Assembly (NCBI GenBank): GCA_040398805.1
Contig: JBBATK010000001.1
Span: 249,933-313,932 of the forward strand
Length of the DNA: 64,000 bases
Reading direction: 5' to 3'
From: Candidatus Kapaibacterium sp.
Lineage (GTDB): Bacteria; Bacteroidota; Ignavibacteria; Kapaibacteriales; NICIL-2
The notes beneath the pieces were generated by a model that was given only the letters and a program-made list of their open reading frames with translations, had not been told where the DNA came from and did no database searches. Both the position numbers and the translations under genes were made by a program. This document shows, piece by piece, positions 5,802 through 46,171 of this stretch; position 1 is the stretch's first letter; the number at the start of each line of letters is the position of its first letter.

Positions 5802-5829
5802 AAACGACTCCTGAAGATAGATTGATGTA

Positions 5830-10105: not shown

Positions 10106-10155
10106 AAAAGAATCTCTCGTGACGATGACGCATATTTTCCTACGTTTTTCTCCAC

Positions 10156-29907: not shown

Positions 29908-29993
29908 GCCCGGGTGGCGAAATGGCAGACGCACAGGACTTAAAATCCTGAGAGGGCAACCTCGTGCGGGTTCGAGTCCCGCCCCGGGCACCA
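29908..29993 (+). tRNA. tRNA-Leu (anticodon UAA), class II long variable arm; CCA is encoded
   Basis: GCCCGGGTGGCGAAATGGCAGACGCACAGGACTTAAAATCCTGAGAGGGCAACCTCGTGCGGGTTCGAGTCCCGCCCCGGGCACCA, with anticodon loop CTTAAAA. Confidence 0.9.
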
Positions 29994-30022: not shown

Positions 30023-30805
30023 CTATAAGAGCGACCGCGTGCGACCTCCGTCGATGGTCAGATTTATCCCCGTGATGTACGCGGCTTCGTTCGATGCGAG
30101 AAACACGACGCCATGAGCTACTTCCTCAGGTTTCGCGAAGCGCTTCATGGGAATCTCTGAGACCATCTCCCGCTCCACTTCTTCGATGGTCTTCCCCGTT
30201 CTTCCGGCCGTCGCGTGAATGATGGACGACAGTCTGTGCGTTGCTGTCGCTCCGGGAAGGACGTTGTTTACGGTGATACCGAAGACGGCGACTTCCCGTG
30301 AGAGTGTTTTGGCCCACGCTGAGGTGGCGGAACGAATGGTGTTCGATACCCCGAGGTTATCCAACGGTTGACGGACGGATGTCGAAATGATGTTGATCAC
30401 GCGACCGAACTGCCGCTCCTTCATGCCGGGAAGACACTCCTTGACGATTTCGTGACCGCTAAGGAGCAAGCGGTTCATGGCGATGTGGAATGCTCCAGGA
30501 TCCGCACCCGCCAAAGGTCCGCCGGGAGGTCCACCGGAGTTGTTGACGACGACATCAATGCCGCCATGTCGCTCAAGGTAGTCATGGATAACGGACCGCA
30601 CGTGCGACGGGTCGTCGAAATCGGCGATGAGCATCGCATGACCCGTTCCGCTCAACTCTTCCAATACTGTTGTCAGCTTCTGTTGAGTGCGAGCGAAGGC
30701 GACGACTTTGGCTCCTGAGTTTGCAAAGGCAAGAGCGGTCGCCTTCCCGATGCCGTCGGTTGCGCCGCATACGAGGACCGTTCGGCCTGTGACGTTAAGA
30801 TGCAT
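30023..30805 (-). CDS. Short-chain dehydrogenase/reductase (SDR)
   Basis: TGRTVLVCGATDGIGKA Rossmann motif; the start is chosen at MHLNVTGR (the 100-aa ORF-track extension is rejected). About 260 aa. Confidence 0.75.
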   Translation of the reverse strand: MHLNVTGRTVLVCGATDGIGKATALAFANSGAKVVAFARTQQKLTTVLEELSGTGHAMLIADFDDPSHVRSVIHDYLERHGGIDVVVNNSGGPPGGPLAGADPGAFHIAMNRLLLSGHEIVKECLPGMKERQFGRVINIISTSVRQPLDNLGVSNTIRSATSAWAKTLSREVAVFGITVNNVLPGATATHRLSSIIHATAGRTGKTIEEVEREMVSEIPMKRFAKPEEVAHGVVFLASNEAAYITGINLTIDGGRTRSLL

Positions 30806-31703
30806 GATGGTGGTCTTTCGAATAATCTGATGGGTTGTACTTCCAACGTTTATGCTGCCATGACCATTGTCCCGGGTACTGGCGGATGATATCCTCGATG
30901 ATCGTCGTGCAACGCTGGACGAGCGTTTCCCGACCTTCCGGGGTGTCATCGATTCCATCCATCGAGACACGACCCGTCTTGACGACGTATCGCCCGTCAG
31001 CTTCTCGAATGGCAAACGCCGTGATGATATCGGCATTGAATCGAAGAGCAAGAGTCGCCGGAGCTTCGAATGTGACGGCGGGCCTTCCGAAAAAATCCAC
31101 GAACACATCCTTCCGCGGATCCGCCGCCTGATCGAGCATCATGCAGACGAAGCCGGCGGTGTTCAACGTGCGGACGATCTCTTTGGCGGCGTCGTCCATG
31201 GGTACCACACGAACGTTGTCCGAACTCCGACACTGATTGATGAGATCATTCATCAATCGGTTCCGTTGGGTCTTGGCGATGGAAATGGCACGAACGGATG
31301 CAAGATCCGCTGTCACCGGGACGGCCAATTCCCAATTGCCGATATGAGCACTGAGAAGGATGGCACCTTTGCCCTGGTCGCGGTTTCTCACGATCTCGTT
31401 ATCCTGTTCGAAAGAGAAGAGTGACAATCGCTCCTCCGCCGGCATGGACGAGATGGAGAAAAGTTCCACGTAACAGGTGGCGAAGTTGAGGTACGACTGT
31501 TTGGCGATGGAAGCTATCCACTCCTCTGTCGCATTCGGATACGCACACCTGACGTTATCCAGAGTGGTTCGCCAGCGGGAGGCAGACGACAGGACAAGCA
31601 GACGCGCGACGATGCGGGAAAGGACGGCTCGGACATGCGTTCCGCCTTTACCACCAAGGAACCCGAGAAGCCGTGCCAGCGTGTATGTCAATCTCTCAAG
31701 CAT
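30795..31703 (-). CDS. lpxL: Lipid A biosynthesis acyltransferase (LpxL/HtrB lysophospholipid acyltransferase family)
   Basis: LpxL-family H(X)4D region in ILLSAHIGNWEL and the typical length; the start is chosen at MLERLTY. Confidence 0.7.
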   Translation of the reverse strand: MLERLTYTLARLLGFLGGKGGTHVRAVLSRIVARLLVLSSASRWRTTLDNVRCAYPNATEEWIASIAKQSYLNFATCYVELFSISSMPAEERLSLFSFEQDNEIVRNRDQGKGAILLSAHIGNWELAVPVTADLASVRAISIAKTQRNRLMNDLINQCRSSDNVRVVPMDDAAKEIVRTLNTAGFVCMMLDQAADPRKDVFVDFFGRPAVTFEAPATLALRFNADIITAFAIREADGRYVVKTGRVSMDGIDDTPEGRETLVQRCTTIIEDIIRQYPGQWSWQHKRWKYNPSDYSKDHHHAS

Positions 31704-31707
31704 CGTG

Positions 31708-33093
31708 CTATTTGTTCTGCGACGGATCGATCGCATAGCGTCTATACCATAAGTCGTCGCGATGCTCGTTGAGCGCGGTGGAGTGGACAAGCGTGACATT
31801 GCCGGATCCCCGTTTGTCCACGAAAACGAAGATCACGCCTCCCTGGATGTTATCATACTCCCAGGTCTCGTGCGGGAAAGCGGCATCGTGATTGAAAATC
31901 ACCCTGTTGATATTCGTTGGAAAACCGTACCGAAGAATCACACGCCCGCGATCGCTATCCCACCCCCGCGGTGAGAAAGGATTGGTGAAGTTGAGTTTCG
32001 CATACTCAACCGCTTTTTTGAAGTCCTCATATCGCTCATTGACCGTTGTGGAGGGATTGGGGTCCTTGTGATACCAGTACCGGAAAAGAAACTTCTGTTT
32101 CGCATTCAGGGTGCTTAGTTGCTGGAAGCTCACCAGTTCTATATCGGGTCCGACCCGCTTGGCTTTTTCATATTCCTCTTGGATGCTTTCGGCATTCATG
32201 GTAGCGAACTCGCTTGCCAGAAAAAGCTGGTCCTCACTGAAAAGATCGGAAAGTTCCGGAGGGTACGCGGGGTTGAGGATATAGAATTTCTTCGACACCT
32301 GACTCGTTGGAATCGATGAACCATCCGGATGAAGGAGTGTAGCAGTAATGTAATAGACGCCGCTTGGAAGTATGTGAACCTGCTGCTCATAGACATCGGC
32401 CGCAACTGCATCCTTGACGCGTATGGTATGCGTCATGTCGAGAATGGGACGTCTGACGGCGTCGCTTATCGAATACAGCACCGACACGCTGTCCACCGGG
32501 TTGACAATATCCTGATTGATTTCCACATAGGTGCGTAATACCGGCATGTCACCGCAAACCTCTCTCGATGGAAGGACACTCACAGACGTCAGCGAAATCT
32601 CGTTCTTGCGTGTAGAATCCACCTCCGGTATCTGACAAATCAGGAGGTCACTGAGCGACAAACCTTTCTTCGAAAATGCTCGAATGACAAGAGGTACCTT
32701 GACGAATTCCTTTCGAGATGGACGTTGTCGGTCGGTTACCGAAAAGTTCAGGGTATACTGGCCCGGCTTCAATTGAAATGATTGGCGACTCACAAAGGTT
32801 TTGCGATTCGAATCAGCTGTGTTGGAAAGAGCACTCTCGACGCTGAACCGACGCTTTACTATTGAGTCTAACCCACTGAGACACACGATGTCGAAATCGA
32901 TTGCGCCCATCAACCCCGACGTGCTCTTCTTGTAGATGAACTGGGTGTCGGCCACCGCGACATAGACATCGACTCGAAGACGACCGGAGTCGCCTTTGAA
33001 CTGGGCAACGTCATACCCGAAGCGCGGTCCGTCGGCCCACACGCTCACGTGGAGGAAGAGAACGGATAGGAAGTACAGATAGGGACGACGCAT
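31708..33093 (-). CDS. GWxTD domain-containing secreted protein
   Basis: A signal peptide and a C-terminal GWDSDRGRVILRYGFP block that matches the GWxTDrGrvy-type motif of this FCB-group family. Confidence 0.65.
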   Translation of the reverse strand: MRRPYLYFLSVLFLHVSVWADGPRFGYDVAQFKGDSGRLRVDVYVAVADTQFIYKKSTSGLMGAIDFDIVCLSGLDSIVKRRFSVESALSNTADSNRKTFVSRQSFQLKPGQYTLNFSVTDRQRPSRKEFVKVPLVIRAFSKKGLSLSDLLICQIPEVDSTRKNEISLTSVSVLPSREVCGDMPVLRTYVEINQDIVNPVDSVSVLYSISDAVRRPILDMTHTIRVKDAVAADVYEQQVHILPSGVYYITATLLHPDGSSIPTSQVSKKFYILNPAYPPELSDLFSEDQLFLASEFATMNAESIQEEYEKAKRVGPDIELVSFQQLSTLNAKQKFLFRYWYHKDPNPSTTVNERYEDFKKAVEYAKLNFTNPFSPRGWDSDRGRVILRYGFPTNINRVIFNHDAAFPHETWEYDNIQGGVIFVFVDKRGSGNVTLVHSTALNEHRDDLWYRRYAIDPSQNK

Positions 33094-33160
33094 GAGGCAA
33101 AAATACCAAGTGCCGACATGGTTCCCCGTGTCGGCACTTGCTTCTTACAAAAACCGTTTC

Positions 33161-34291
33161 TTATTGGAAGCGCAGAGCCACACTCAAACGATTGACAACA
33201 CCAAGATCGGTTGTAGGCTGAATAGCGAAATCGACCATTCCGTCGAAGCCACCACCGACATACCGGACGCCGACACCGCCACTCAGTCCGAACTGGTCTT
33301 GATTGTAACGATAGCCGGCGCGGATGCAGAAGAGGTCGTTCCACGTGTATTCGGCACCAATTGCAGCTTGCTCGGGAACATCGGAAAGCGTCTCGAAGTC
33401 AGCAGCCATGACCAAGCGATGTTCTCTCGAGGTGTTGATGCCGAGATCAGGCAACGACTCGTACATCCCGAACCACTCAGACAACACGTCGCAAGCGATA
33501 CCAGCTTTAAAGGTCAGGGGAACATTGAAAGGACTGCTAAGAAGCGTCGCATCCAATTTCTGGTACTGTAACTGCGTAATCAGATCCGTTTTCGTAAACA
33601 GGTTGTTACCAGTGAACTGCATCTGCGATCCGAGATTACTGATCGAGAAGCCAGCACGATAGCCGCCGAAGCGGTACAACGTACCGATATCGACGAACAG
33701 GCCGGAAGCGGAAAGTGACGAGATGTTGTTCTGGACGAACTTCATCGACACGCCGAAACTGAACTGTTCCGTCAAGAATGCCGCAAAAGATCCGGCAATG
33801 GCCATATCGGCGATCTCGTACGAATTGCCTAGGCGGTTTTCGTCTTCGAGCGTCGTCAGCGGGATCGCACCGCTCGACAACGACGTAATGGAAAGGCCTG
33901 CCTTGTACTTCTCCCCTACCGGAAACACGCCGGCCAGGAAATTGTGACTATAGCCACCGAACCACTGCGTATGCGATATGTTAGCAGCATAGCCCTTGAT
34001 GTCGACGATTCCAGCAGAATTATAGAACAACGCGGAAAGATCGTTGGAGACTCCTGCGAAGGCACCTGCCATACCGTTGGCCCGAGCTCCTACGCCGATG
34101 CGCAGAAACTGTCCACCTGCAGCACCGACCTTACGGAACTGGCCACCGCTCACGCCTTGTGCATTATCACGAGGGTTCTGCGCAAGAGCTCCGAATGAGA
34201 GGAGCACCAATGCAGCGAACAGTGTACCGTACACTCGAGAGGTCTTGTTGATTACTGAGTTTTTCATATTCAGGATTAGATGTTTGTACAC
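33161..34291 (-). CDS. Second PorV/PorQ-family T9SS outer-membrane beta-barrel (paralogue of porV)
   Basis: 376 aa with a signal peptide, the motif IGVGARANGMAGAFAGVSNDLSALFYNSAGIV (compare PorV at 4731: PDARASGMGECGTALADNINAIFWNTGGLA), beta-barrel pattern and C-terminal RFQ. It lies 9 bp downstream of the CTD cargo gene. Confidence 0.65.
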   Translation of the reverse strand: MYKHLILNMKNSVINKTSRVYGTLFAALVLLSFGALAQNPRDNAQGVSGGQFRKVGAAGGQFLRIGVGARANGMAGAFAGVSNDLSALFYNSAGIVDIKGYAANISHTQWFGGYSHNFLAGVFPVGEKYKAGLSITSLSSGAIPLTTLEDENRLGNSYEIADMAIAGSFAAFLTEQFSFGVSMKFVQNNISSLSASGLFVDIGTLYRFGGYRAGFSISNLGSQMQFTGNNLFTKTDLITQLQYQKLDATLLSSPFNVPLTFKAGIACDVLSEWFGMYESLPDLGINTSREHRLVMAADFETLSDVPEQAAIGAEYTWNDLFCIRAGYRYNQDQFGLSGGVGVRYVGGGFDGMVDFAIQPTTDLGVVNRLSVALRFQ

Positions 34292-34299
34292 TGTGACGA

Positions 34300-37200
34300 T
34301 TAGCGAACCAGACGAGCACCACCGACGACAACGGAGAACTTCTTGATAGTCTTCGCACCATTTGGCGTCTCGATGACGGCAAAGAGTCCTTGACTCGTCG
34401 CACGTTGCTTGTTGTTGCTCAGAAGGTCCCAGATATCCATACCCTGGCGGTTAGTCCCGTCCTGATCAACGTGTTGAATCGTACGGATCAGATCGCCGTT
34501 CACCGTGTAGACTCTGATCGTGCACTCCTTGGGCAAGCGAGTGAAGAATATCTTGGCGTCGTAGGTAGACTTCTGACCGATGGACGAGATGACATACGGA
34601 TTCGGAACAACAAGGACATTGTTCAGGATATCGTCCGTGACGGCCTGGTTACCGTCCGCATCGAGAGGAAGTTCCGATGGACTGATGGTCATCGTCACCG
34701 TTGCTCCATCCTTCGGCAACCCAAACGCGCCTCCGAATGTCGACAACATGATCTTGTCTCCCGCTTGAAAATCCTTCGTCGGAATCAACGGAGTCTCCTG
34801 CGTGGAATCCGTATAGAGGCGTTCGTACGTTCTTCCACCGGAGGTAGCACCGGATCGTCCACCCTTGGCGGCATAGTCGATGAGGTACTCTGCACCGTCG
34901 ATTGCTATGAAGTGCGTGAAATCCAACGTGTCGTTGTTCTGAATCTTGGACAGGTAATACCGTCCCTGAGCAACCGGACGCCCGGTGTTTGTCTCCAAAG
35001 CTTGATAGCGTCGTGAATTGATTTTACCGATGGAGTTTGATTCCTTATCTGCGATGTTCGAAGCGGAATACCTACCGTTCAACCAGCCGTTCGCCGACAG
35101 ATTGAACGAGCCAACCGGAACAGCTTGGGGATCGGGGAACTCGCGAACAGTGGCCGTACCATTGGGAAGGTTCGGCGCGAGGGTCACCGGTAGCGAAACC
35201 GTTGCATGAGGGATATCTGCGCTGTTGCGAACCTCGATGCTGTCCTTTGTCGTTGCATCGAAACGCTTGAACGAGTACGTATTACGAACCCGAACATTCA
35301 GATATGGCACCTCCGTAAAATTGACCGTCACCGTGTCGACCACCGGAGTAGGAGGTGTCTTCGACGAGTCGATGTACCGACGGAGTCTCTTTGACGTGAT
35401 GTTTTCGACTCCTCCGGGAAGGAACTCCACGTCGTACCGACCAGGTCCGTTGTTGTAGGTCTCGTATCGAAGCAGCGAACCATTCAAGCGCGTGCGTTGA
35501 AGTCGTTCGTTCGGTGTGCTGTTGATCTTGCTATCCGACAACTGGACATCCGAGTTTCCTGCAACATGCTTGATGCCATCGACGCGAAGATATCCGCCCA
35601 GCTGCTGCATCGTGAAGTCGAACTCGATTCCCAGAGCTCCGTTGATGAAACGGTTCGGTGCGTTGCACGGCCGGTTGGTCGAGAACATACCAGACCGAGT
35701 AACGACGGAGCGATTGAACGGATTCGCGAAGTTAGCGGAGTCCGCCAGCAAGGAATCTGCGTCGAAACGACGGCCGGGTGACATTTGAACGACGGAGCAC
35801 TCACTGAAGAGTCCGGAGAACACGCAATCTTGAGGTTCATAGTACACATCGAAGTCGCCGAGCAAGGTGTTGGTCGTCAAATCTCGAACGTTCAGCGTAT
35901 GAGTATAGATACCCTCGAGGAGATTCAACGAATTACGATCAAATGCAGAGTCGACGGATGCATACGCACCATTGAACGCAAGGATATTCCGTTTGAACTC
36001 TAGTTGAATCTTATGACCGCCGAACAGCTCGTTGAAACGCTGTTGATCACCGGCGACGAGACGGAAGTTATGCAAACCCCCAAGGGAATTCGTGTCATAT
36101 TCCACCGAAGCCACGCCCGAATTCACCGAGGAACCCTGCGCCAGCGGGAACGCCTGCTGGAGATTCACTTTCTCCACCCCGTTATTCGTCTTGATGGGAG
36201 TTCTTTGGAAGTAATCCCCTTCGTCATACGCCAAGAGGCGATAGTAGTAATCAACATTATTGATGAGTTTCTCCGTCTTGGTGAGATCGGGGTCTGAGGA
36301 AACAACACCGTCCTGATTGTCATCGCCATAATCGACGTATCGGCGCTTCGACGTCACAGAATCGATGTAACGGCCCACCAGACTGCGATATTCTACTGTG
36401 TTTTCCAAGTCGTCGACAAGCCAGATGAGTTGAGCCTTACTATCGATGACCTGACGATACATGCTGTTGATCGCAACGCGGACGGCGGCTGTATCCGTTG
36501 CGGAGAATTTCGGAACAACCCCATTAGGACGTATGCGGACGAGACCGAGAGTCAAACTATCGTATTTGATCGGTGTGCTATACGCCGCTCGAGGGATCAA
36601 CGGAGCAAAAAACGAACGCCACGGTTCCGATCCCGTATTGGGAATGCGACGTATCAGGAACACACTCGTATCGCGCTCATCTGCGCTTGTGATGAACTTC
36701 GGATACAGTCTGCTGTATCCCGATTTCGTCAGGACCGTCGCGGAGGGGAAGAAGGGCGTCAAGATCGTCGTCGAATCGGCCTTGATGTCCGAAGAAACAT
36801 ACGGCTTCGGACATTCCCACCGTGCGATTTCCTTCCAACCGAACGGCCCCTTACCGAGCGAGTAATTCGCACTCGGAAGAGTCTGATTCACGTCGAAGGT
36901 GTCAAGATTGTTCACGCGAGCACGGAAAAGACGGTACCCGAGAAAGTCCATGCCCTTCTCTTGCGGGTCCACGGATGCCTCAGATGTCTTGTCCCATTCG
37001 ACGATGACACCATTATTGATTGGCTTCCATGTGATAGGGCCCACATCGGGCGGCTTCGGAGTAGCGAACGCATTGTCATAGACCGCTTGAGCGAATTTGT
37101 CACGACGGATGAGCTCGGACAGGTCGGCGCTGTCTCCGGTGGCTTCAGCACCTTTACCGGGAGGGGCGAAAATCATTCCAAGAACGACGCGGGCGGTGTC

Positions 37201-38529
37201 ACCTGGAGCCATGTTGAACGGTCCCGTCGCCATAAGGAATCGCTTATCGCCGGCTGCACCGTCACCGTCACGCTGACCCAACGCCATGAAGTCGTAACGT
37301 CCGATATCGCTCGTCGGATCGTTGGCAATCACCCAGTTTCTGAAGGTGCGAAGACCGATCTGTTCTTCACTCGTGTAGTACCCCTTGTCATGGCGGATGA
37401 AGCCGTTATTCGGATCCACAGCCGGACTCTCGAGAAAGTCCATGCCGATATATCCGAAGCCTTTTCCTCTTTCTACCGCGTTGTTTGTCTCAGACCATTG
37501 GAACGCCAAGTTTAATGTCGTGTCTTGAGAATAATAATTGACGCGGTCGTTATTCGCGATTTGCGCTCCCCCGTTCGGACCTATATCGAAGTCATAGGCA
37601 GGAGCCATCCAACACTTGTTCAGTGTATCCTTCGAGCGATTGATGATGTTATAGGCGATGAACAAGAAGTTCGCGTATTCGCCATAGCCCCATGAGTAGA
37701 TGGTCTGCTCATATTGAAGACGCAACGGATACCCACGACTTTCCGCAATATCCTTACCATCCTCGAACTGACGAAGGTCCGTGTCCTTGTACGTCGCGAA
37801 GATATCTTCATTCGAAACGAAAACTGGTCCCTTCTTCTTGCCATCGTCTGTCGTCGGCATCGACTCGCTGTTCCGCTGATTGACGTCGTACATGTACTTA
37901 CCGAAGTACCGAGTCTTCTCCTTATCGAAAGCATTATAGGAGAGGGTGTCTCCAGGCCCCGAGAAATCCCAGATCGCCCAATTCGGACCGTCAGCGGGAC
38001 GGCGCGGAGAACCGTCCACCTTGAAGTCCGTCGAAATGTATGTACGATACTTGGAGATACTCTCGGGATCGTCCTTCACTTCATCACCGTCTTCGATACG
38101 TCCAGGAGAAAGCCAGGAAGCGCCCGAATTCGGATTGTACGAGATTTCCGACATCTTCCGAATGATCGTATCTGTCGTTCCTGCCGCTGAATCGCGAATG
38201 ATGAGCTTTTTCGTTGCTGCGAACCATACACCTCCACCGAATATATATTGGTTCTGCGAGTTACGAGGCCAAAAGCCCCCACCGACGTTATTGGCAACAT
38301 TCAAACCGAAGATGCCGTAGTTCGTCGTATAGAACTGAATCTTACTGACGGTATTCTGTTGAAGGTCATTCTGTTTGAATACCCGTTGCAACTGATTCTT
38401 CCCTTTCGTCTTCGTTCTATCAATGTCTTTCGCTGATACGGTCGATAGACTTCCTACCAACAGCATCAAAAGACACGACATGCCGACCGGGCGTAGAAGG
38501 TTCATTGTATAATCTCCTAATGTTTTCAT
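34300..38529 (-). CDS. Very large secreted protein (1409 aa) of unknown function carrying a T9SS C-terminal sorting domain
   Basis: A signal peptide (MSCLLMLLVGSLSTVSA), a beta-rich N/T/S/G/Y-biased body with no HEXXH or subtilase motifs, and a C-terminal CTD (LVVPNPYV...CTIRVYTVNGDLIRTI...GLFAVIETPNG...). 38505 is an alternative start. Confidence 0.7.
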   Translation of the reverse strand: MKTLGDYTMNLLRPVGMSCLLMLLVGSLSTVSAKDIDRTKTKGKNQLQRVFKQNDLQQNTVSKIQFYTTNYGIFGLNVANNVGGGFWPRNSQNQYIFGGGVWFAATKKLIIRDSAAGTTDTIIRKMSEISYNPNSGASWLSPGRIEDGDEVKDDPESISKYRTYISTDFKVDGSPRRPADGPNWAIWDFSGPGDTLSYNAFDKEKTRYFGKYMYDVNQRNSESMPTTDDGKKKGPVFVSNEDIFATYKDTDLRQFEDGKDIAESRGYPLRLQYEQTIYSWGYGEYANFLFIAYNIINRSKDTLNKCWMAPAYDFDIGPNGGAQIANNDRVNYYSQDTTLNLAFQWSETNNAVERGKGFGYIGMDFLESPAVDPNNGFIRHDKGYYTSEEQIGLRTFRNWVIANDPTSDIGRYDFMALGQRDGDGAAGDKRFLMATGPFNMAPGDTARVVLGMIFAPPGKGAEATGDSADLSELIRRDKFAQAVYDNAFATPKPPDVGPITWKPINNGVIVEWDKTSEASVDPQEKGMDFLGYRLFRARVNNLDTFDVNQTLPSANYSLGKGPFGWKEIARWECPKPYVSSDIKADSTTILTPFFPSATVLTKSGYSRLYPKFITSADERDTSVFLIRRIPNTGSEPWRSFFAPLIPRAAYSTPIKYDSLTLGLVRIRPNGVVPKFSATDTAAVRVAINSMYRQVIDSKAQLIWLVDDLENTVEYRSLVGRYIDSVTSKRRYVDYGDDNQDGVVSSDPDLTKTEKLINNVDYYYRLLAYDEGDYFQRTPIKTNNGVEKVNLQQAFPLAQGSSVNSGVASVEYDTNSLGGLHNFRLVAGDQQRFNELFGGHKIQLEFKRNILAFNGAYASVDSAFDRNSLNLLEGIYTHTLNVRDLTTNTLLGDFDVYYEPQDCVFSGLFSECSVVQMSPGRRFDADSLLADSANFANPFNRSVVTRSGMFSTNRPCNAPNRFINGALGIEFDFTMQQLGGYLRVDGIKHVAGNSDVQLSDSKINSTPNERLQRTRLNGSLLRYETYNNGPGRYDVEFLPGGVENITSKRLRRYIDSSKTPPTPVVDTVTVNFTEVPYLNVRVRNTYSFKRFDATTKDSIEVRNSADIPHATVSLPVTLAPNLPNGTATVREFPDPQAVPVGSFNLSANGWLNGRYSASNIADKESNSIGKINSRRYQALETNTGRPVAQGRYYLSKIQNNDTLDFTHFIAIDGAEYLIDYAAKGGRSGATSGGRTYERLYTDSTQETPLIPTKDFQAGDKIMLSTFGGAFGLPKDGATVTMTISPSELPLDADGNQAVTDDILNNVLVVPNPYVISSIGQKSTYDAKIFFTRLPKECTIRVYTVNGDLIRTIQHVDQDGTNRQGMDIWDLLSNNKQRATSQGLFAVIETPNGAKTIKKFSVVVGGARLVR

Positions 38530-38547
38530 GTTCTTTTTATAGCCGTG

Positions 38548-41500
38548 TTAAAATCTGATGTTGAAACCGAAGTACACCTGGCGCGGGAACTGATAGTTGG
38601 TTCTGCGCTTGATCGCATCATTGACATACTTGAGGTACATCTGATACTGCTCGTACTGCGTGACGATACCGTCTTTATTGATATCGCTGTTCACGCTATA
38701 CAGTCGGTTTCCAAGGCGGTCGTATTGCGACAAGGCAAGCGAGTTCGGGTTATTCTCATCCGCTCTGCTATACAACGGCAACGAGGGAAATTCCCCTTGC
38801 TGACGATACAACGATACACCATCGTTGTCAGGATCCTTCGTCCGCGTATACACCAGTATCGGCTCGGTACGGTTGAAGACGTTTATCACATCGAGGAAGA
38901 TTTCGATATCGCTGGCACCGAACGAATCTCCGAAGATACTCTTGAAGGGAATACGACGGGAGATACGGCAATCGATGTTCCACAATGACGGATAACGCTC
39001 ACCGTTGAAATCACCAAGCTGATTACCCTTGAGATCAAGCAGCGTATACGGTTGACCTGACTGGAAGACACCGGTGAAGTTCAGATTCACCAACTCCAGA
39101 ATCTTCATTCCCGCAATGGTCGGTCCTTCGCCGGCACCCCACATCAAACCGCCGTTGAAGTTGATACGGTGACGGCGATCATAATCGAGAGGCGATTCGA
39201 CCAAGGGGAAAATCTTCTTGTCCGTAAAAGGATCAGAACCGGCGGTGATGATACCATAGTTCGAACCTACACTCGACGACGTACCCTGAGCATACTGAAG
39301 CGTATAGTTCAGGGTGAACTCGAAGTTGTTCGACAAGCGACGACGGAGGGAGATCTCGGTTCCGCGGACATTGCCGTACTCGCCGTTACTGACGAGTGAA
39401 TACGGCGTGCGGGTGTCTTCAACGTAGACAAGACCGGTGAGAGAGTAGATATCCTTGTAGTAGGCAGCCACGTCGAGGGCGAAATCATCGGAAAGCTGCG
39501 TGCTATACGAGACGTTGTATTGATTGGTACGTTCGGGACGCAGGTCGGGATTGGAAACTATGGTGTTTCCGCGACGGAGCACCGAAGAGATGTTGTCGTA
39601 CAACGAGGAGAAGATGGGAACCTGCGTATAGATACCGTAGGCGATGGTGAAGAAACTCGCATCGGAAATCGGGTATGACACGAACAAACGAGGACTGAAC
39701 TGTGTTTTGAACGACGCATCGACGCGGGAACTCTGGATGCTTTGCGGCTCGATGGCATACGCTGTTTTCGGATCGAACCCGTCGATACGCAGACCGGGAG
39801 TGAAGTTAATACCCTTGTATTGGATCTGATCACTCACGAAAATCGAACCCATGAGTGCCTGCTTGGGCTTGCTTCCCAGCTCACGCTCTTCGGCGAAAAG
39901 ACTATAGATATCACCACCGAATCGATCGTCATACACATCATAGAACGGATTGCTCGACCACGGAAGCGAGTTCGAGTAACGACGCACCGTGAAGCTTCGG
40001 ACGTCGAATCCGGCTTGCAAGACATGCTTCACGTCACCAAGCTGAATCATGTTCTGATAATTGCTCTTTGCTTGGATGAAGCTTGAGCTCCGGAACTCGA
40101 AGCCACCGCCACCGGCACCGATGAAGATACCTGTCAGACCATACGGATTATTCGTACTCGATGCATCCGTACCTTCTTCGATGTAGCCGGTAAGGTTACT
40201 GGGAACGAATGCATTGAAAGGCCGTTTCGGATCGTTGTCCAGGTACACCGTACCCTGAATGGCCGTATAATTATCAACGACTTTATCCCCTTGATCGCCG
40301 GACTTGCGGACAAGGCGCTGGTCGAACTGACGTTGTTGCAGAACATAATCATCGGTCGGCGTGAAGACTTTGTAGCCGGAGAAGAAGCTCGGTCCAGGCA
40401 AATCCGTCGACACCTTCGAGGGATCTACGGGCACACCATTGACAAGCTTCGATCCTGCGCCCATCGGAATGAAACGACGGGAGTTCTCGGTCACGTTGTT
40501 GTTGAACGAAATGGTCGCCTCATAGAAGCTGGTCGTGCTCAACTCATGATTCAAACGGGCGTAATAACTATAGATGAAGTTGTTCGCAACGTTCTGATGT
40601 GCTCTATTGATGGGCACTGTCGAGTAGAGGATGGTATCATTCAATCGTGTGCTGGGATTGTATTCGAACGTCCGTGAGGGAGCATTGGCATACAGCCAAC
40701 CCCAACCGGCGTAGGAAAGAGAGGTGAGACCCCAAGAACCTCCGAATTGGATTCTCATGTCACTCGACAGTTTGATCGGAAGTCGACCCGTTATATTTCG
40801 GACCTGAGACGATTCTCCCGGGATATGTCCCAAAGAGTTACCGGCTATATCCCGAGCATCCAAACCATCACCCAGGTAGTTCGTCGAGTTCACTGTTCGG
40901 AAATTGTCGGAATAATAGCGCACAGACATATAGAAGGTTGAACCGTCAAGTCCCGGCAACGGTCCGCCGAGTCCGAAGTCGAAGGTGTTTTCCAACATTC
41001 CTAAGGCCTGAAGGCCATTACCCGATTTGCCCCAGAGTCCCGGTACATCGGTCTTGAATCCGAAAAACGCTTCGTAACGGTCTGTACGACCGGTCTTGAC
41101 GGTTTGATTGATGACGCCGGCGGTGGTCTGACCATACTCTGCGCTGGCATTACCACGAATGACCTGTACGTCAGCCGTCGCTGCACGCGATGTCGTCGGT
41201 GCATACTTCAAGTCACCAGTCGATGTCGCAGCCGATCCGAAACCACCGGAGATAGCATCGGAAACGTCCTGGTCATCGATGAGAATACGCGTGTCGGTAT
41301 TTCGACCTCCACGGATACTGATACCACCGCCCGTGGACAATACGCCCGTCGTTGTCAACGCGATCTGCTGAGCATTATCCTTACCGGCCGTACGAAGCAT
41401 GACCTCACCGCTGACCTTATCGGCGACTGCGACTTGCTTATCATCATTGATGCGTTGGGCAGTGACGACGACGTCTTTCGTTACGACGTCTTTGGATTTC

Positions 41501-41805
41501 AGACTGATGGATCCCACGTTCGTCGTCTGGTCGGCACTGATGGTGATCTTTCGTTCAACGGTCTCAAGACCCGTGAACGTGATTTTGAGCTCGTAATTTC
41601 CCGCAGGGATGTTGATGATATCAAATGAACCATCCGCCTTCGTGTACGCACCCTTCTTCGTGCCAACGACACTGACGGCTGCACCCTTCAGGCGCTTACC
41701 TTCGTTGTCTTTGACGACCCCCGCAACCGATCCGTTCGTTCCGGCAAATGCATGCACGCTCGCGAAGAGGATGGCGATTATGATAAACATCACCCGATGC
41801 TTCAT
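38548..41805 (-). CDS. Oar-like outer-membrane protein: N-terminal carboxypeptidase-regulatory-like domain, then a TonB-dependent-receptor plug and a large beta-barrel (1085 aa)
   Basis: Start at MKHRVMFIIIAILFASVHAFA. GSVAGVVKD...GAAVSV marks the CarbopepD_reg-like domain, ISIRGG the plug, and the barrel ends YFGFNIRF. No SusD-like partner is present. Confidence 0.75.
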   Translation of the reverse strand: MKHRVMFIIIAILFASVHAFAGTNGSVAGVVKDNEGKRLKGAAVSVVGTKKGAYTKADGSFDIINIPAGNYELKITFTGLETVERKITISADQTTNVGSISLKSKDVVTKDVVVTAQRINDDKQVAVADKVSGEVMLRTAGKDNAQQIALTTTGVLSTGGGISIRGGRNTDTRILIDDQDVSDAISGGFGSAATSTGDLKYAPTTSRAATADVQVIRGNASAEYGQTTAGVINQTVKTGRTDRYEAFFGFKTDVPGLWGKSGNGLQALGMLENTFDFGLGGPLPGLDGSTFYMSVRYYSDNFRTVNSTNYLGDGLDARDIAGNSLGHIPGESSQVRNITGRLPIKLSSDMRIQFGGSWGLTSLSYAGWGWLYANAPSRTFEYNPSTRLNDTILYSTVPINRAHQNVANNFIYSYYARLNHELSTTSFYEATISFNNNVTENSRRFIPMGAGSKLVNGVPVDPSKVSTDLPGPSFFSGYKVFTPTDDYVLQQRQFDQRLVRKSGDQGDKVVDNYTAIQGTVYLDNDPKRPFNAFVPSNLTGYIEEGTDASSTNNPYGLTGIFIGAGGGGFEFRSSSFIQAKSNYQNMIQLGDVKHVLQAGFDVRSFTVRRYSNSLPWSSNPFYDVYDDRFGGDIYSLFAEERELGSKPKQALMGSIFVSDQIQYKGINFTPGLRIDGFDPKTAYAIEPQSIQSSRVDASFKTQFSPRLFVSYPISDASFFTIAYGIYTQVPIFSSLYDNISSVLRRGNTIVSNPDLRPERTNQYNVSYSTQLSDDFALDVAAYYKDIYSLTGLVYVEDTRTPYSLVSNGEYGNVRGTEISLRRRLSNNFEFTLNYTLQYAQGTSSSVGSNYGIITAGSDPFTDKKIFPLVESPLDYDRRHRINFNGGLMWGAGEGPTIAGMKILELVNLNFTGVFQSGQPYTLLDLKGNQLGDFNGERYPSLWNIDCRISRRIPFKSIFGDSFGASDIEIFLDVINVFNRTEPILVYTRTKDPDNDGVSLYRQQGEFPSLPLYSRADENNPNSLALSQYDRLGNRLYSVNSDINKDGIVTQYEQYQMYLKYVNDAIKRRTNYQFPRQVYFGFNIRF

Positions 41806-41953
41806 AGTTTCTCCAATGTATAGATGATTTGGAATAAAAGACTCGTTCATTTGCACCTGGCGAACACTACGCTTGACGGACGGTGCATTCCCCACTCTCC
41901 CCTCGTCTGCCCGCCGAACATTCAGCGACCACAGGACAGACCAACGGTACTCC

Positions 41954-44026
41954 TTATCGGAGTACCGTGATATTCTTTGTGACAACGCCGTCGGCCGTGC
42001 GAACCGAAAGTACATACGCACCTACCGCCAGGTTGTTCGTCGAAATCGTCTTGTAGACTCGACCAATTTCATTGATAGCCGCCGAATACACGATTTGGCC
42101 GACAGCATTGCTCATTGTTACGGTTCCATTGCCGCCATTGTTCTCGAAAGCGACCGTCAGTTCTTCGCTTGCCGGATTCGGTGATGCGACGAGGCCAATG
42201 GTTTCCGACGTATTATCACGTACACTCACCTGCGTAAGACCGTTCCACGCCGGAAGGTCTGCAACCGTGAAGTTCGAGACCGTCAGGTACTGCTTGTACA
42301 AGTCGAAGTTGTCGGCATTGGACGACGCGAGACGCATCTGCGAATCATACAGTCTCTCACGAATGGTCAACCCCTTGTCAGCAGTTTGCAATGTGACCAG
42401 CGGTATGTTTTTCATGTCGCTAGGCACTACCGTCGGCAACCATGTCGTGCGATCGACGATGTCGCTTTGTGTGACGTTCTTGACGATCGACCAATCTCCA
42501 CCGGACTTGGCACGCGTGCTGAGAACGACATCTGTTGAGAGAATCGTGTCTTGGACACCGTCTTCGTTCTTGAACGTGACATACTTTGCCTCAAGGAACT
42601 TGCAGATGATGGTATTCTCGTCGGCAGTGACAGCAGCCTGAAGTTCATTACCCATCTGCGTGGGGCTGAGTGAACCGTCGTTATCAAAAGCTCTCCAGAA
42701 ATCCGCATTCTCGAACAAGGAAACGTTCGCCACCTTACGGATACCCCATTGACCATTATTGAAGTAACATTCTACCAGATGTGTCTCCGCAGGCTGCGAC
42801 GACGGAACATAGAACTGGGTGAAACAGCTGTACATGTCAGGACCGTAGGCGACAAAAGCATAGGTGGTCAGACGGATGCCCACGCTGGCATCTGAGGAGC
42901 TGCGCGTCCAATCGAAGAACACACTATCGGGATCACAGTTCAGCGACCGTGCATACGCAGCGAAAACGGACTGCGGAAGGATGTTGAAGTTACCCCATGC
43001 TTCTCCATGATTCGTCGACTTCGAAACGCCAAAGGTTCTGAAGGTGGAATCGTCGTTAGCAACGAAAAACCCGAAGCTGGCATTGTAGAAATTGCCCGCC
43101 TTGTCACGGCTCATTCCTACGTGATTACGCGTGCGGCTGCTGGCAGAGGAGACGCTAAGGAACTTGTTGCTTGCCCACTGAGCCGGAACGGTCAGCTTTG
43201 GCTTCGTTGCTGATTCGTAGAAATCCTTTCTCCACAGGCCGACAGAGTTCACATCGGCAGGGCTCGTGCTCGACGAATCACTGGGAATGAGGTCTACGGA
43301 AAAGCACGAAATGAGCTTGTCGTCAGCAGAGGTACGATAGCTTGCCGTCGTACATTCCGTACCCCACCAGAAGGGAGAGCCGTTGATGATGATTTCGTCG
43401 CCGATTTCGTCGTAGGCGGCCGACGAAGTGGGATCGTTCGCTTGGTAGCCGATCACCGAGCCGTCCCAGCCACGCTCTCGACCGCCCGTGCCCGTCGCAT
43501 TTTTTGTCAACGGTGCAAAGAACGTGAAGACCGCTTCATCGATGACTTTACCGCCCTCAGGAACGACGATATCAACCGATGGGTACCGAGGCAAACCACC
43601 GCGGGAAGCGTCACCGGTATGCAATGAGAACGGGCGTTCCCATGTCTTGCCAAGATTTCCAGAAACCAGCAATCTCAGGCAGTTCGAATTATCAGGATTG
43701 CCCGGTGCGTTCGGAGCCGGAAGCGCTCCTCGTTTGATGACGGCGAAAAGACCCGTTCCAGGCTCGTAAGAGATAGGTTGTTGCTCTGAACCATAGAACG
43801 AATACGCATTGAACAACGAATCAATCACTCTGTATTCCGCAGCCGCTTGGATGCGATTGGACTTGAGACCAAGTGTCGTCACCGGGACGTTCGAAAGACG
43901 CGTCGGGACCGCACGGGTGTCCGGTGCGAACGTGGGTCGTGATGATGGAATCTCCTGTGCAACCGCAGAAATGGTGCCGAGAAACAACGAAACCGCGGCA
44001 AATGCGCCGGAAAACAAGTGCTTCAT
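41954..44026 (-). CDS. BNR/Asp-box repeat protein with a T9SS C-terminal sorting domain
   Basis: A signal peptide, Asp-box-like SxxxGxxW repeats (SGNLGKTW, STNHGEAW, SGGDWS) and a C-terminal CTD (LVASPNPASEELTVAF...GAYVLSVRTADG...). Confidence 0.6.
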   Translation of the reverse strand: MKHLFSGAFAAVSLFLGTISAVAQEIPSSRPTFAPDTRAVPTRLSNVPVTTLGLKSNRIQAAAEYRVIDSLFNAYSFYGSEQQPISYEPGTGLFAVIKRGALPAPNAPGNPDNSNCLRLLVSGNLGKTWERPFSLHTGDASRGGLPRYPSVDIVVPEGGKVIDEAVFTFFAPLTKNATGTGGRERGWDGSVIGYQANDPTSSAAYDEIGDEIIINGSPFWWGTECTTASYRTSADDKLISCFSVDLIPSDSSSTSPADVNSVGLWRKDFYESATKPKLTVPAQWASNKFLSVSSASSRTRNHVGMSRDKAGNFYNASFGFFVANDDSTFRTFGVSKSTNHGEAWGNFNILPQSVFAAYARSLNCDPDSVFFDWTRSSSDASVGIRLTTYAFVAYGPDMYSCFTQFYVPSSQPAETHLVECYFNNGQWGIRKVANVSLFENADFWRAFDNDGSLSPTQMGNELQAAVTADENTIICKFLEAKYVTFKNEDGVQDTILSTDVVLSTRAKSGGDWSIVKNVTQSDIVDRTTWLPTVVPSDMKNIPLVTLQTADKGLTIRERLYDSQMRLASSNADNFDLYKQYLTVSNFTVADLPAWNGLTQVSVRDNTSETIGLVASPNPASEELTVAFENNGGNGTVTMSNAVGQIVYSAAINEIGRVYKTISTNNLAVGAYVLSVRTADGVVTKNITVLR

Positions 44027-44362
44027 GATGAACGTGTAAGAGGTAAAAAATCGAATTCTGTTCAGGTGTTAAGGTTTGCTAACGGTCTGGCAATATAAGA
44101 AGCTCGAAATGAGCGACCGAGGGAAAATTTCCCACACGGATGGTGGCGTCGAACCGCGTCTTTCGTCACGGAAAAGATGTTTTTGCCCACGTTTCACCGA
44201 GTGTCCCGCTGTCAAGGCCAACGTCGGCGTGAACCCGTTTCCAAACGTCCGGCTATGTGACCTATACAGATGGACGGATTCGCCAGTGCAGCCGTCATAG
44301 TGCATCAACCCCACCTGTCGTACCTTTGTTTCACACGCGTTTGTCCGAGAATCGGGACTCAC

Positions 44363-46171
44363 TTAGCGATGAAGCCAGAAATCCCGTAGGCGCTGCGCAT
44401 CTGGCGACGGTCCCTCCACCATGGTCATCGCATATCGCGCTTTTCTCTCTCGACGCAGATGCGTGGTGTACGTCTTGCCATCGCACGAAGCCAATATCTC
44501 AAGGTCGTCGCCAGGGGCCTGCGCAACGACATCGTGGAACAATGCCGACGTGGCCGTACGTAGTCCGTTGACCGCGATGATCTCGTCGTCAATAGACATT
44601 CCGGCCTGCTGTGCGGGTGCGGCATCTGCGAGGGTGGTGATCACGAGCCGACCCGACTCCTCCTTCAATCCAAGACCCAGCGAAACGGAACCTCGCACGA
44701 ACTCACCGTCAACGGTCGTCTTCGTCCATCTCAAACCCAACGGCTCTAGATACTCGTTGTAATCAAGCTCTTCGGTGCCACTGAGCCAGGTACTCATAAG
44801 CGTTGCAACCTCGCACCCGGTGGATCGTTGAATGGCATCGAAGACTTCCGACTCGGTCACTCCGCACTCGGGTCGACGTTCGTACATGTCCCATAGCTCC
44901 CGCATGGCATCGTCCAACGAACGCGTCCCGTTCGATTGGCGGATGATATGAAGATCCAACAAGAGGGTGATGACGCCACCCTTCAGGTAGTACGAGGGAT
45001 GTCTGTTGTTGCCATCCGGAGATTGGGCGTAGAGTTTCACCCACGCCAGCGTGGATGCATCCCGTGTGCTCATGGCGAAACGTCCGCGAACATCATCAAG
45101 CCTGCCCAGGTGCTCCTCGGCAAGGGACTTGAGATACTGCGGCTCTTCCATGAAACCGCACCGGTACGAGAAAAGGTCGTCGTAATAGGACGTGAATCCC
45201 TCAGCAAGCCAGAGCATCGGAGAGTAAACCTCCCGCGTATAGTCGAACGGACCGTACTCGCGGGGTCGTATACGCTTCACATTCCATGTGTGGAAATACT
45301 CGTGACATAACAAAGCAAGCAATCGACCGGAGGTCGCCGTATCCGTCAGTGCCGTGTAGTCGATCATGTTCACACTGCATCGAGCGTGCTCAAGTCCGCC
45401 GAAGATGTTCGAGCCCACCTGGATCATGAAGACGTATCGATCGTACGGTACTCCTCCGAACATCGCTCCCTCTTTCTCAACGATGGTCTTGCATTGACGT
45501 GTGATCCATTCGGGATCCAGCGGCATCGATGAGACCAACGCGACTTCATGCACAGCACCGTGCGCTTCGAACGTCCCGACCACATGATTACCCACCTCGA
45601 TCGGCGAGTCGACAAGGATGTCATAGTTCAACGCCCCGACGACAACGGGTCCGTCCGCATTCGACAGATGCGGCACCGGAGACAAGGCGGTCGACACGAC
45701 AGACCACTCGCATGCCGCCGAATACACGTACACGTGATGGATCTCATGCTGCCTCCCCTCCACATACATCATGCAATTGGCCGGATTGATGAACGCCCGC
45801 CATCGATTGATATGCATGGTCCGGACCGTTCGCTCGTTCGCGTAATAGGTATAGGAGATTTTCACACAGCGTACACCTTCGCCACATGAAATGCGGAGGC
45901 GATTCTTCTCCACCCAGGAATAAGACAGCGACCGTCCGCTCTCATCCGCCACGACCACGTTGCCCTGATGAGAGACGAAGTCACGCACCTTGTAGGAACC
46001 CGGTATCCAGGACGGCATGACGAGGGTGAGCTCGGATTCCGTCGTCTCGACTTCCATATCCACGCACAACAGATGCTGCGAAGCCCGATGGAAGTGACAA
46101 TGGTAACGGATGGCCGCTGCGGTTCCGGTGAGTTGCTCGTCACGTTGTTCGATGGTATAGTTCTGGTTCAT
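44363..46171 (-). CDS. M61-family metallopeptidase (glycyl aminopeptidase-like) with a C-terminal PDZ domain
   Basis: HEXXH in LLCHEYFHTW, a PDZ-like segment GLKEESGRLVITTLADAAPAQQAGMSIDDEIIAVNG and a length of about 600 aa. Confidence 0.65.
   Translation of the reverse strand: MNQNYTIEQRDEQLTGTAAAIRYHCHFHRASQHLLCVDMEVETTESELTLVMPSWIPGSYKVRDFVSHQGNVVVADESGRSLSYSWVEKNRLRISCGEGVRCVKISYTYYANERTVRTMHINRWRAFINPANCMMYVEGRQHEIHHVYVYSAACEWSVVSTALSPVPHLSNADGPVVVGALNYDILVDSPIEVGNHVVGTFEAHGAVHEVALVSSMPLDPEWITRQCKTIVEKEGAMFGGVPYDRYVFMIQVGSNIFGGLEHARCSVNMIDYTALTDTATSGRLLALLCHEYFHTWNVKRIRPREYGPFDYTREVYSPMLWLAEGFTSYYDDLFSYRCGFMEEPQYLKSLAEEHLGRLDDVRGRFAMSTRDASTLAWVKLYAQSPDGNNRHPSYYLKGGVITLLLDLHIIRQSNGTRSLDDAMRELWDMYERRPECGVTESEVFDAIQRSTGCEVATLMSTWLSGTEELDYNEYLEPLGLRWTKTTVDGEFVRGSVSLGLGLKEESGRLVITTLADAAPAQQAGMSIDDEIIAVNGLRTATSALFHDVVAQAPGDDLEILASCDGKTYTTHLRRERKARYAMTMVEGPSPDAQRLRDFWLHR

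Follow-up and report, generated by a model that had tools for sequence, protein, structure and literature searches.

The type IX system of protein secretion (T9SS) has been worked out almost wholly in a few members of the Bacteroidia and Flavobacteriia. Two of its proteins, PorU and PorZ, are the ones whose C-terminal domains (CTDs) stay unprocessed, and both of these CTDs carry an extra hairpin between strands 5 and 6 (PMC11285876); PorU is held on PorV, and PorZ on PorQ (PMC12365241). In Porphyromonas gingivalis, the TonB-receptor-like T9SS component PorF acts late in secretion and has been proposed to import glycan for A-LPS, a lipopolysaccharide (LPS) (PMC12704123, PMC5445135). The literature that we searched held nothing on T9SS attachment components in Ignavibacteria or Kapabacteria. 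Here, we examined a block of seven genes, all on the minus strand at positions 30023-44026 of a 64,000-nucleotide stretch of Candidatus Kapaibacterium sp. (assembly GCA_040398805.1, contig JBBATK010000001.1, positions 249,933 to 313,932; hereafter the window, numbered from its first letter). Its first four genes (unit A) encode a propeller protein with a CTD, an Oar-type barrel, a giant protein of 1409 aa with a CTD that we assign to the PorZ/PorU type, and a PorV-like barrel, and they form a core that is conserved across hundreds of Kapabacteria and Ignavibacteria species. The region consists of two adjacent, partly coupled units and not of one simple operon, the second (unit B) comprising the genes of a GWxTD protein, an LpxL-type acyltransferase and, in the window, a short-chain dehydrogenase/reductase (SDR). 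We tentatively favour, at somewhat less than an even chance, a reading in which the T9SS exports the giant protein, which is then docked on a barrel of its own, as PorZ is on PorQ, beside a PorF-like TonB barrel, while the LPS genes of unit B would be reached by read-through of a terminator. The seven open reading frames, with the domains and the junctions listed for them in an earlier note on this DNA, were all confirmed at the coordinates given there. That note had not recognised the cluster as a described operon, and the literature that we searched contained no account of it. What is undescribed is the combination of genes, the 1409-aa family and a module of it that we call domain X, whereas T9SS cargo, PorV-family barrels, TonB-type barrels and LpxL are already known kinds.

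The giant protein (34300-38529, minus strand) matched no family in Pfam and NCBIfam model searches of the window proteins, and a profile search found no sequence relative of it in the Protein Data Bank (PDB). Its predicted architecture is a signal peptide, domain X, an array of beta-sandwich domains and the CTD. AlphaFold models, which were built from a 90-sequence alignment and compared with the PDB by Foldseek, had a mean predicted local distance difference test score (pLDDT) of 91.4 over residues 50-720 and of 86.1 over residues 700-1409. The C-terminal half is modelled as a chain of beta-sandwich domains, and its CTD (approximately residues 1300-1409; 34303-34632, minus strand) as seven strands with a helix and a loop inserted between strands 5 and 6. 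For this half, PorZ (5m11) was the sole match at probability 1.0 that was longer than about 110 columns (136 columns), and PorU (6za2) gave weak, low-probability alignments. The end of the NCBIfam PorZ model (its C-terminal 80 positions; 666-747) was matched by 21 of 25 C-termini of the family (best E 3.6e-8), the PorU model by nine and the generic CTD models by two only; the window protein itself scored 20.5 bits over the last 80 or so positions of the PorZ model, and its CTD is 31% identical over 48 aa to that of the PorU encoded elsewhere in the window. By profile and by model, then, the CTD is assigned to the PorZ/PorU type. The description of the protein as a giant CTD protein therefore stands in so far as it has a CTD of this type, but the generic CTD models do not detect the window protein.

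The window also holds a canonical porU-porV pair, 24 kb from the cluster. PorU (1479 aa; 5830-10269, minus strand) scores 826.7 bits on NF033707 against a cut-off of 420 and 286 bits on Peptidase_C25, has a FlgD_ig-type CTD and carries about 350 extra N-terminal residues, the model match beginning at residue 358; PorV (356 aa; 4731-5801, minus strand) scores 250.8 bits on NF033710 against a cut-off of 250. Two rejected candidates for the giant protein are best mentioned here. It is not taken for a divergent PorU sortase, since the same window already encodes canonical PorU (827 bits) and PorV, the giant is without a Peptidase_C25 or NF033707 signal and its match to 6za2 is weak; in addition, Foldseek gave no PorU or gingipain match to the model of its N-terminal half. 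Nor is it taken for a PorZ orthologue, because only the CTD matches NF052228 (cut-off 260), the full-length protein does not, and the N-terminal fold is not a propeller.

The barrel encoded directly downstream of the giant protein (33161-34291, minus strand) scores 161.4 bits on NF033709 against a cut-off of 90, over model positions 4-326 of 326, and matches the Flavobacterium johnsoniae PorV structure (6h3i_F) at E 1.6e-6. Its scores on the equivalog models are all far below the cut-offs (PorQ 67.3 bits against 220, PorV 66.4 against 250, PorV2 61.7 against 325), and this failure is not simply a matter of lineage distance, because the canonical PorV of the window passes its own cut-off; the two share 21% identity. 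We class the cluster barrel, from these family models and because the canonical pair lies in the same window, as a 14-strand-type outer-membrane barrel of the PorV/PorQ family, a paralogue and not the canonical PorV. With canonical PorV and PorU encoded at 4731-10269 and a giant CTD that appears to be of the barrel-retained type, the proposal that the PorV-like barrel is a general shuttle for CTD proteins is unlikely.

The order of a large CTD protein followed by a PorV-family barrel thus occurs twice in 64 kb. The cluster shares this order of a large CTD-bearing surface protein and its barrel with porU-porV, and the CTDs of the two large proteins are weakly similar, but the giant lacks a Peptidase_C25 domain and the organism already has a canonical PorU. 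When the pair is set beside PorZ-PorQ of P. gingivalis, the likeness lies in the PorZ model and structure as best matches of the giant C-terminus, in the adjoining PorV/PorQ-family barrel and in the LPS genes next door. PorZ is exported by the T9SS, keeps its CTD, is held on its barrel and binds the A-LPS glycan with its body, and the giant protein may have counterparts of each of these properties. The differences are that there is no similarity outside the CTD, PorZ consisting of two beta-propellers in about 776 aa and the giant of domain X and beta-sandwiches in 1409 aa, and that the cluster barrel reaches 67 bits on the PorQ model against its cut-off of 220. The genes porZ and porQ of P. 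gingivalis are not known to be neighbours. The pair also recalls SprB-SprF of F. johnsoniae, in which a large T9SS substrate with a type B CTD is linked to its own barrel that sets its final location (PMC12618676). However, the cluster barrel belongs to the PorV/PorQ family and scores below the cut-off on PorP_SprF (21.7 bits), and the giant CTD is PorZ/PorU-like, no type B CTD model being among the NCBIfam matches to the giant C-termini at E ≤1.

Domain X (approximately residues 55-490; 37060-38367, minus strand) lies in an N-terminal half that is modelled as beta-rich with few helices. Foldseek gave weak matches only for this half (template modelling, TM, score ≤0.27), namely to members of glycoside hydrolase (GH) families GH116 and GH94, dextran dextrinase, heparinase III (HepC) and the periplasmic domain of YidC, and because the model of this half has few helices, the part shared with these proteins is taken to be their beta-sandwich domains. 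An exhaustive HMMER search with the N-terminal half returned 1005 cluster representatives (E ≤1e-3). Among the relatives are many stand-alone proteins of about 520-560 aa, consisting of a signal peptide, domain X and a type A CTD, which are 38-49% identical to residues 55-490 (they fall within P0293-P0376, and include L088:10001-11557 and L089:10001-11584; P numbers label homologous proteins, and L001-L090 the related loci or contexts used for comparison). A few others are 1076-aa fusions in the order SBBP propeller repeats, domain X and CTD. For two domain X paralogues the gene context was inspected, and each is an isolated gene in a genome that also encodes the giant protein; no second copy of domain X was found in the window or in the cluster loci examined. 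In a 27-sequence alignment of the giant's domain X with 26 shorter paralogues, W87, Y95, W102, K107, S166, W184, W187, R219, S239, E241, D249, D313, D315, D328, W345, Y412, D428, R430 and D469 are at least 90% conserved. As the residues conserved in both the long and the short forms are mainly Trp, Tyr, Asp, Glu and Arg, the pattern is like that of a glycan site. Domain X is thus predicted to be an autonomous T9SS-secreted module, which is probably glycan-binding or glycan-processing.

Directly upstream of the giant gene is that of the Oar-type barrel, whose open reading frame occupies 38548-42021 (minus strand) and matches CarboxypepD_reg and Plug models. The gene most likely starts at 41805, where a 1085-aa protein (38548-41805, minus strand) begins with MKHRV and a signal peptide; a GGAG Shine-Dalgarno-like motif 6-8 nt 5' of this start (41806-41820) is invariant in the window, L005, L008, L009 and L017. 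The protein is predicted to consist of the signal peptide, the CarboxypepD_reg domain (CarbopepD_reg_2, 64.7 bits), a TonB-box-like motif (DVVVTA), the plug (21.4 bits against a cut-off of 23.9) and a large barrel, with weak TonB-receptor matches at residues 724-931. The plug was matched in the homologues of L001-L004 and L085 (E ≤1e-5), weakly in those of L086 and L087, and no sequence relative of the protein was found in the PDB. PorF (PG0534), a TonB-receptor-type barrel that belongs to a late, LPS-linked stage of secretion (PMC12704123, PMC5445135), would by description resemble it, although PorF is of 92 kDa and the cluster barrel of about 120 kDa with a CarboxypepD_reg domain.

Oar of Myxococcus xanthus, compared by architecture alone, likewise has CarboxypepD_reg, a plug and a barrel in a total of more than 1000 aa. 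Since a TonB-dependent transporter that is needed for protein secretion has this precedent (PMC6434023), and the barrel and giant genes are invariably adjacent at a median gap of 29 nt, one could suppose that the Oar-type barrel exports the giant as Oar does PopC, and that the PorV-like barrel and the CTD-like domain serve a route independent of the T9SS. We consider this very improbable: nothing here ties the barrel to export, and the simpler view of a 150-kDa multidomain beta-sandwich protein with a CTD like that of T9SS components is that the T9SS secretes it, as the organism has canonical PorU and PorV.

The first gene of the block encodes a 690-aa propeller protein (41954-44026, minus strand) which scores 33.1 bits on PF18962 (cut-off 27) and 27.3 on TIGR04183 (cut-off 23). 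All 21 members of its family that were compared have a type A CTD and none matches PorZ or PorU; the family profile matches the solved CTDs 8glj_D and 8glk_D. The signal peptide, as read from the sequence, ends in AVA-QE. Over positions 225-525, the profile matches sialidases and BNR proteins of the PDB at E 1e-8 to 1e-5, GH33 sialidases among them, and Asp-box-like motifs are visible in the protein. We classify it, from these profiles, as T9SS cargo with a type A CTD and a sialidase (BNR/Asp-box) fold. The possibility that it is an active sialidase was rejected because the fold matches without a conserved Arg: no invariant or near-invariant Arg that could belong to a catalytic arginine triad was seen among the 21 members, a result which, as the alignment is divergent, is indicative and not final. 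With this protein, three of the genes are T9SS-related by family and CTD models, as had been noticed before.

A TonB-type barrel next to a sialidase fold and a glycan-site-like domain calls to mind the nutrient-harvesting utilisomes in which SusC works with SusD, SusE, SusF and SusG. By analogy, unit A could be a TonB importer with surface partners that trim or capture glycans and that are delivered by the T9SS and tethered by the PorV-like barrel instead of by lipid anchors, and the adjacency to LPS genes would be a matter of genome organisation without common function. We regard this as possible, if on balance doubtful. In its favour are the DVVVTA motif, plug and CarboxypepD_reg N-terminus, which are as in SusC-type transporters, the match of the propeller family to GH33 sialidases, and domain X, which resembles beta-sandwich domains of glycoside hydrolases and phosphorylases and also occurs as free T9SS cargo; moreover, many carbohydrate-active enzymes of Melioribacter bear Por sorting domains (PMC3534657). 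The likeness to SusC/SusD systems ends with the barrel, its N-terminal domain and the adjacent surface glycan partners: neither a SusD-like lipoprotein nor a glycoside hydrolase family was detected in the cluster, the partners carry T9SS CTDs and not lipoprotein signals, and the propeller family, having no invariant Arg, appears to be without the sialidase arginine triad.

The distribution of the cluster bears on the same alternative. Relatives of the giant protein are encoded in 296 species genomes (pattern scan, one genome per species) from hot springs, lakes, groundwater and sludge, and we counted at least 455 homologues, every one named 'hypothetical', with scores of about 900 bits or more even where the identity over 1400 aa is as low as 35-40%. 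Loci for nutrient utilisation are, as a rule, variable, substrate-specific and multi-copy, whereas this cluster is found in 296 species-level genomes, its giant proteins are 35-74% identical over 1400 aa among the relatives compared, and no second copy was seen in any related locus examined. The best named relatives of the giant come from metagenome-assembled genomes (MAGs) labelled Candidatus Kapaibacterium, 'Chlorobiota' or 'Bacteroidota', and many MAG titles in the comparison set carry unreliable taxonomy. Cluster-bearing records titled Hyphomicrobiales, Bradyrhizobiaceae, Patescibacteria group, Chitinophagaceae and Chloroflexota (L024, L048, L053, L057, L061, L080; P0063, P0145) were also met with, and these are probably taxonomic mislabels or bin contamination.

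Gene order was scored by tblastn of the window proteins against the 80 best loci, from 80 related species genomes, and only loci with enough flanking DNA were counted. In 67/67 loci the giant gene has the Oar-type barrel gene directly upstream of it, and in 73/73 it has the PorV-like barrel gene directly downstream; the GWxTD gene comes next in 55/65, the LpxL gene after that in 52/62, and the SDR gene after LpxL in 9/61. The propeller gene, which is too divergent for this method, was found by it in 23/62 loci, and an iterated profile placed a homologue of 620-725 aa directly upstream of the barrel gene in 59/62. Gene calls in five other lineages gave the same gene order. The linkage of lpxL to the CTD proteins and to a PorV paralogue, on which the earlier note had laid weight, is therefore kept in relatives. 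Because the outer flanks vary between lineages, it is the block itself that is retained, and the persistence of the LPS genes beside unit A in about 85% of genomes, despite this turnover of flanks, speaks against an adjacency without function.

At the distal end of the block, the SDR gene is a lineage-specific last gene confined to close relatives, and in L001, L003 and L087, which are distant Ignavibacteria/Kapaibacterium contexts, a heptosyltransferase gene of glycosyltransferase family 9 (GT9) takes its place after LpxL. At the proximal end, an extracytoplasmic function (ECF) sigma gene stands upstream in three of the five other lineages with gene calls (L001:2563-4507, L003:2585-4484, L087:2750-4670). 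It overlaps the start of an unannotated gene of 448-463 aa that is directly upstream of the propeller gene. The window lacks these two genes, which could act as a dedicated pair of regulators; the upstream position of an ECF sigma gene with a gene of about 450 aa also favours a utilisation locus. The subclade of L085 keeps the four-gene core only, and in the same subclade a detached GWxTD gene (L090:8001-9416, GCA_016788785.1; compared with L038) lies between genes for a Wzx-type flippase and O-antigen modification and lptB-kdsA-lptC, so that GWxTD is found with LPS genes for a second time, independently of the cluster.

The junctions of the block show where its two units meet. Two of them, propeller to Oar-type barrel and PorV-like barrel to GWxTD, were missing from the earlier list, and they carry a hairpin and a terminator respectively. 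The 67-nt gap before the GWxTD gene contains an intrinsic terminator (33098-33139, minus strand), made of a GC-rich hairpin (33108-33139) and a U-tract (33098-33107), which ends 4 nt before the GWxTD start codon; the spacer (91 nt) has a fold energy of -36.1 kcal/mol (z -4.5). Clear terminators stand at the equivalent place in L008, L003 and L087, and a strict scan was positive at this junction in 36/58 loci against 2/390 intragenic control windows, the other junctions giving 0/74 (Oar/giant), 5/76 (giant/PorV-like) and 0/51 (GWxTD/LpxL). The stems share a TGCCG...CGGCA core even in relatives whose giant proteins are about 35% identical. A consensus promoter and terminator scan of the window returned no more sites than in shuffled sequence, and its tail rule made it miss this real terminator.

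In the window, the Oar and giant genes are 18 nt apart (42 nt when counted from Met9, a residue aligned in at least 90% of homologues); the gap from giant to PorV-like is 8 nt, or 32 nt if the start is the ATG at 34267; GWxTD and LpxL are 4 nt apart, and LpxL and SDR overlap by 11 nt. Among relatives, where gene starts are estimates, the median gaps are 29 nt (Oar to giant, 74 loci), 34 nt (giant to PorV-like, 76 loci), 84 nt (PorV-like to GWxTD, interquartile range 78-91, 58 loci) and 0 nt (GWxTD to LpxL, 51 loci), and GWxTD and LpxL are predicted to be translationally coupled. From the end of the stem to the GWxTD start codon the median is 21 nt, which leaves no room for a separate sigma-70-type promoter past the terminator, so that attenuated read-through seems a better description than full independence, and the conserved terminator looks like an attenuator rather than a simple operon end.

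A second structure, a stem-loop with a 10-bp stem (41944-41968, minus strand; -19.3 kcal/mol, z -3.2), overlaps the propeller stop codon and is followed by the 148-nt spacer that results from the barrel start at 41805. Non-homologous hairpins without a U-tract occur at the same place in L008 (~6560-6590), L005 and L017, with compensatory changes between L008 and L005, and stems of at least 9 bp are enriched in post-propeller spacers (17/57 against 17/300 control windows). These hairpins could be mRNA-stabilising or processing elements.

The single seven-gene operon of the earlier note is not supported by these observations, given the terminator conserved in 36 of 58 loci, the hairpin after the first gene, an SDR gene kept in 9 of 61 loci and a GWxTD gene that is detached in one subclade. 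That note had further suggested a co-regulated surface-coat module; spelled out, the PorV paralogue would shuttle both CTD proteins to the surface and LpxL would tailor the lipid A to which they are covalently bound. The common strand, the short gaps, the single long leader, the presence of two CTD proteins with a PorV-family barrel and the conserved lpxL linkage all agree with it, T9SS activity is coupled to lipid A remodelling in P. gingivalis (PMC12704123), and read-through of the terminator would still yield co-regulation. Nevertheless, we judge it improbable and, among the readings of the role, the weakest version, for besides the terminator and hairpin inside the block, the unconserved SDR and the detachable GWxTD-LpxL, canonical PorV is available for type A cargo, the giant CTD appears to be of a type that is neither cleaved nor lipid-linked, so strong a sequence conservation is atypical of coat proteins and fits a machine or receptor component better, and the TonB-type barrel is left unexplained. 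The terminator is also a point in favour of a utilisation locus, as it sets the LPS genes apart.

Unit B begins with the GWxTD protein (461 aa; 31708-33093, minus strand), which scores 65.9 bits on TIGR04514 (cut-off 28) and 24 on PF20094, below the cut-off of 26.9. The motif reads GWDSDRGR (GWDSD) in the window, the clade consensus being GWxSDRGR, and the N-terminal part gives a weak match to Wzt_C, an O-antigen-binding domain (E 0.002). A profile search found no PDB relative, and the literature searched held no paper on 'GWxTD'. The protein is predicted to be secreted and, by its gene contexts, is linked to LPS genes. The next protein (302 aa; 30795-31703, minus strand) had been labelled a lipid A acyltransferase, a label that PF03279 (156 bits against a cut-off of 22.3) and an HX4E motif in the form HIGNWE bear out; as the best NCBIfam model, lauroyl acyltransferase, gives 146 bits where the equivalog cut-off is 248, we place it at the level of the LpxL-type lipid A late acyltransferase family. 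The last gene of the window block encodes a FabG-like SDR (260 aa; 30023-30805, minus strand; adh_short_C2, 145 bits).

The 336-bp non-coding leader that had been described ahead of the block was found again at 44027-44362 (minus strand). A block of about 60 nt in it is conserved in the closest relatives, while a 97-codon open reading frame (44069-44362) is broken by indels in L005 and L008. The promoter/operator region likely lies at about 44075-44140, a block which holds a perfect palindrome, GGAAATTTTCC, at 44122-44134 and a TATATT box about 90 nt before the first start codon; no sigma-70 consensus site was found in the leader. The palindrome was rejected as a regulon motif, since it is found in the two closest relatives only and nowhere else in the window. 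The same-strand run of genes continues upstream past the block (M61 peptidase, DUF885 and further genes), so that the edges of the block are the leader and a convergent tRNA-Leu gene (29908-29993) and not a change of strand.

GC content is slightly lower inside the block than outside (0.50-0.53 against 0.55-0.57). That the block is a foreign island was rejected because the GC content is barely lower and the block is present across 80 related species genomes. The remainder of the 64-kb window consists of housekeeping genes. The gene that immediately precedes the block in the window (44363-46171, minus strand) encodes an M61 glycyl aminopeptidase with a PDZ domain, as it does in the close relatives L005, L008, L011-L015 and L086; plus-strand M61 matches occur in 25/80 loci, in many Ignavibacteria-type loci about 7-9 kb downstream of the giant gene. 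The window has two further envelope-lipid genes, one for an MsbA-related ABC exporter (1344-3092, plus strand) and one for a phosphatase of the PAP2 family, which includes lipid A phosphatases (27521-28408, plus strand). The PAP2 phosphatase, Mur ligase and LepA were rejected as conserved neighbours, because they adjoin the cluster in the nearest relatives only.

We now return to the docking of the giant protein on its own barrel. All four products of unit A carry Sec signal peptides and would be assembled in the outer membrane and at the cell surface. The propeller and giant proteins would be exported through the organism's T9SS, whose canonical porU and porV genes lie at a distance of 24 kb, and PorV and PorU would deal with the propeller, which has an ordinary type A CTD, as they do with other cargo. 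The giant CTD, by contrast, may stay uncleaved and dock non-covalently on the dedicated barrel encoded immediately downstream, and giant and barrel would then join PorU-PorV and PorZ-PorQ as a third such pair. Thus docked, the giant would show a stalk of beta-sandwich domains and the glycan-site-like domain X beside a TonB-energised barrel, with the Oar-type barrel as its putative PorF-like partner. Unit B, with GWxTD, LpxL and then SDR or GT9, would be an LPS-building unit, and most likely it owes its expression, at a lower level, to transcripts that read through from unit A, since its first start codon comes about 20 nt after the conserved terminator.

Several observations weigh against this proposal. 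The giant CTD resembles those of PorZ and PorU to a modest degree, with E 1e-4 for the window protein and 15% identity in the match of structures, and the CTD features that prevent cleavage are still not understood in the field (PMC11285876). There would be less need for a PorZ-like role if these genomes also encode canonical PorZ and PorQ. A nutrient-uptake locus, too, could consist of a TonB-dependent barrel with a sialidase-fold protein and a protein that looks glycan-binding, and the ECF sigma gene in three of five other lineages is as in polysaccharide utilisation loci. That domain X also occurs in stand-alone paralogues points to an extracellular activity of a general kind and not to one specific to a machine, the fold matches of domain X are weak (TM 0.26), and one subclade has lost the adjacency to LPS genes.

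With regard to the role of the docked assembly, we consider it most probable that it deals with surface glycan or LPS when cargo is attached in type IX secretion, by binding or trimming the glycolipid that anchors cargo. The presence in 296 species-level genomes, the strong conservation and the LPS neighbours favour the handling of the cell's own glycolipid, whereas T9SS-tethered nutrient capture has in its favour the TonB barrel, the propeller's sialidase fold, the domain X paralogues that occur free and the ECF sigma genes, and the evidence does not separate these two readings. A bolder version, which we think unlikely in its full form, is that the giant, the PorV-family barrel and the Oar barrel make up a lineage-specific third T9SS attachment arm that replaces or extends PorZ-PorQ-PorF, in which domain X, as a glycan-binding or glycan-processing fold not recognised before, captures or trims the organism's own LPS-type glycolipid, powered by TonB at the outer membrane, and the synthesis of the arm is tied by the attenuating terminator to lipid A and core assembly (GWxTD-LpxL-GT9).

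The cluster bears on the way in which the deeper branches, Ignavibacteria and Kapabacteria, anchor their cargo. It provides a testable candidate, a predicted PorZ/PorU-type CTD protein beside its own PorV-family barrel and a TonB-type barrel in 296 species-level genomes, and it connects T9SS-linked assembly with lipid A and core genes. Two unannotated families can now be named and studied, one being that of the 1409-aa protein and its domain X, the other that of the GWxTD proteins with their two independent LPS contexts. If the TonB-type barrel does work with the docked giant, this would also offer a clue to the role of PorF in P. gingivalis.

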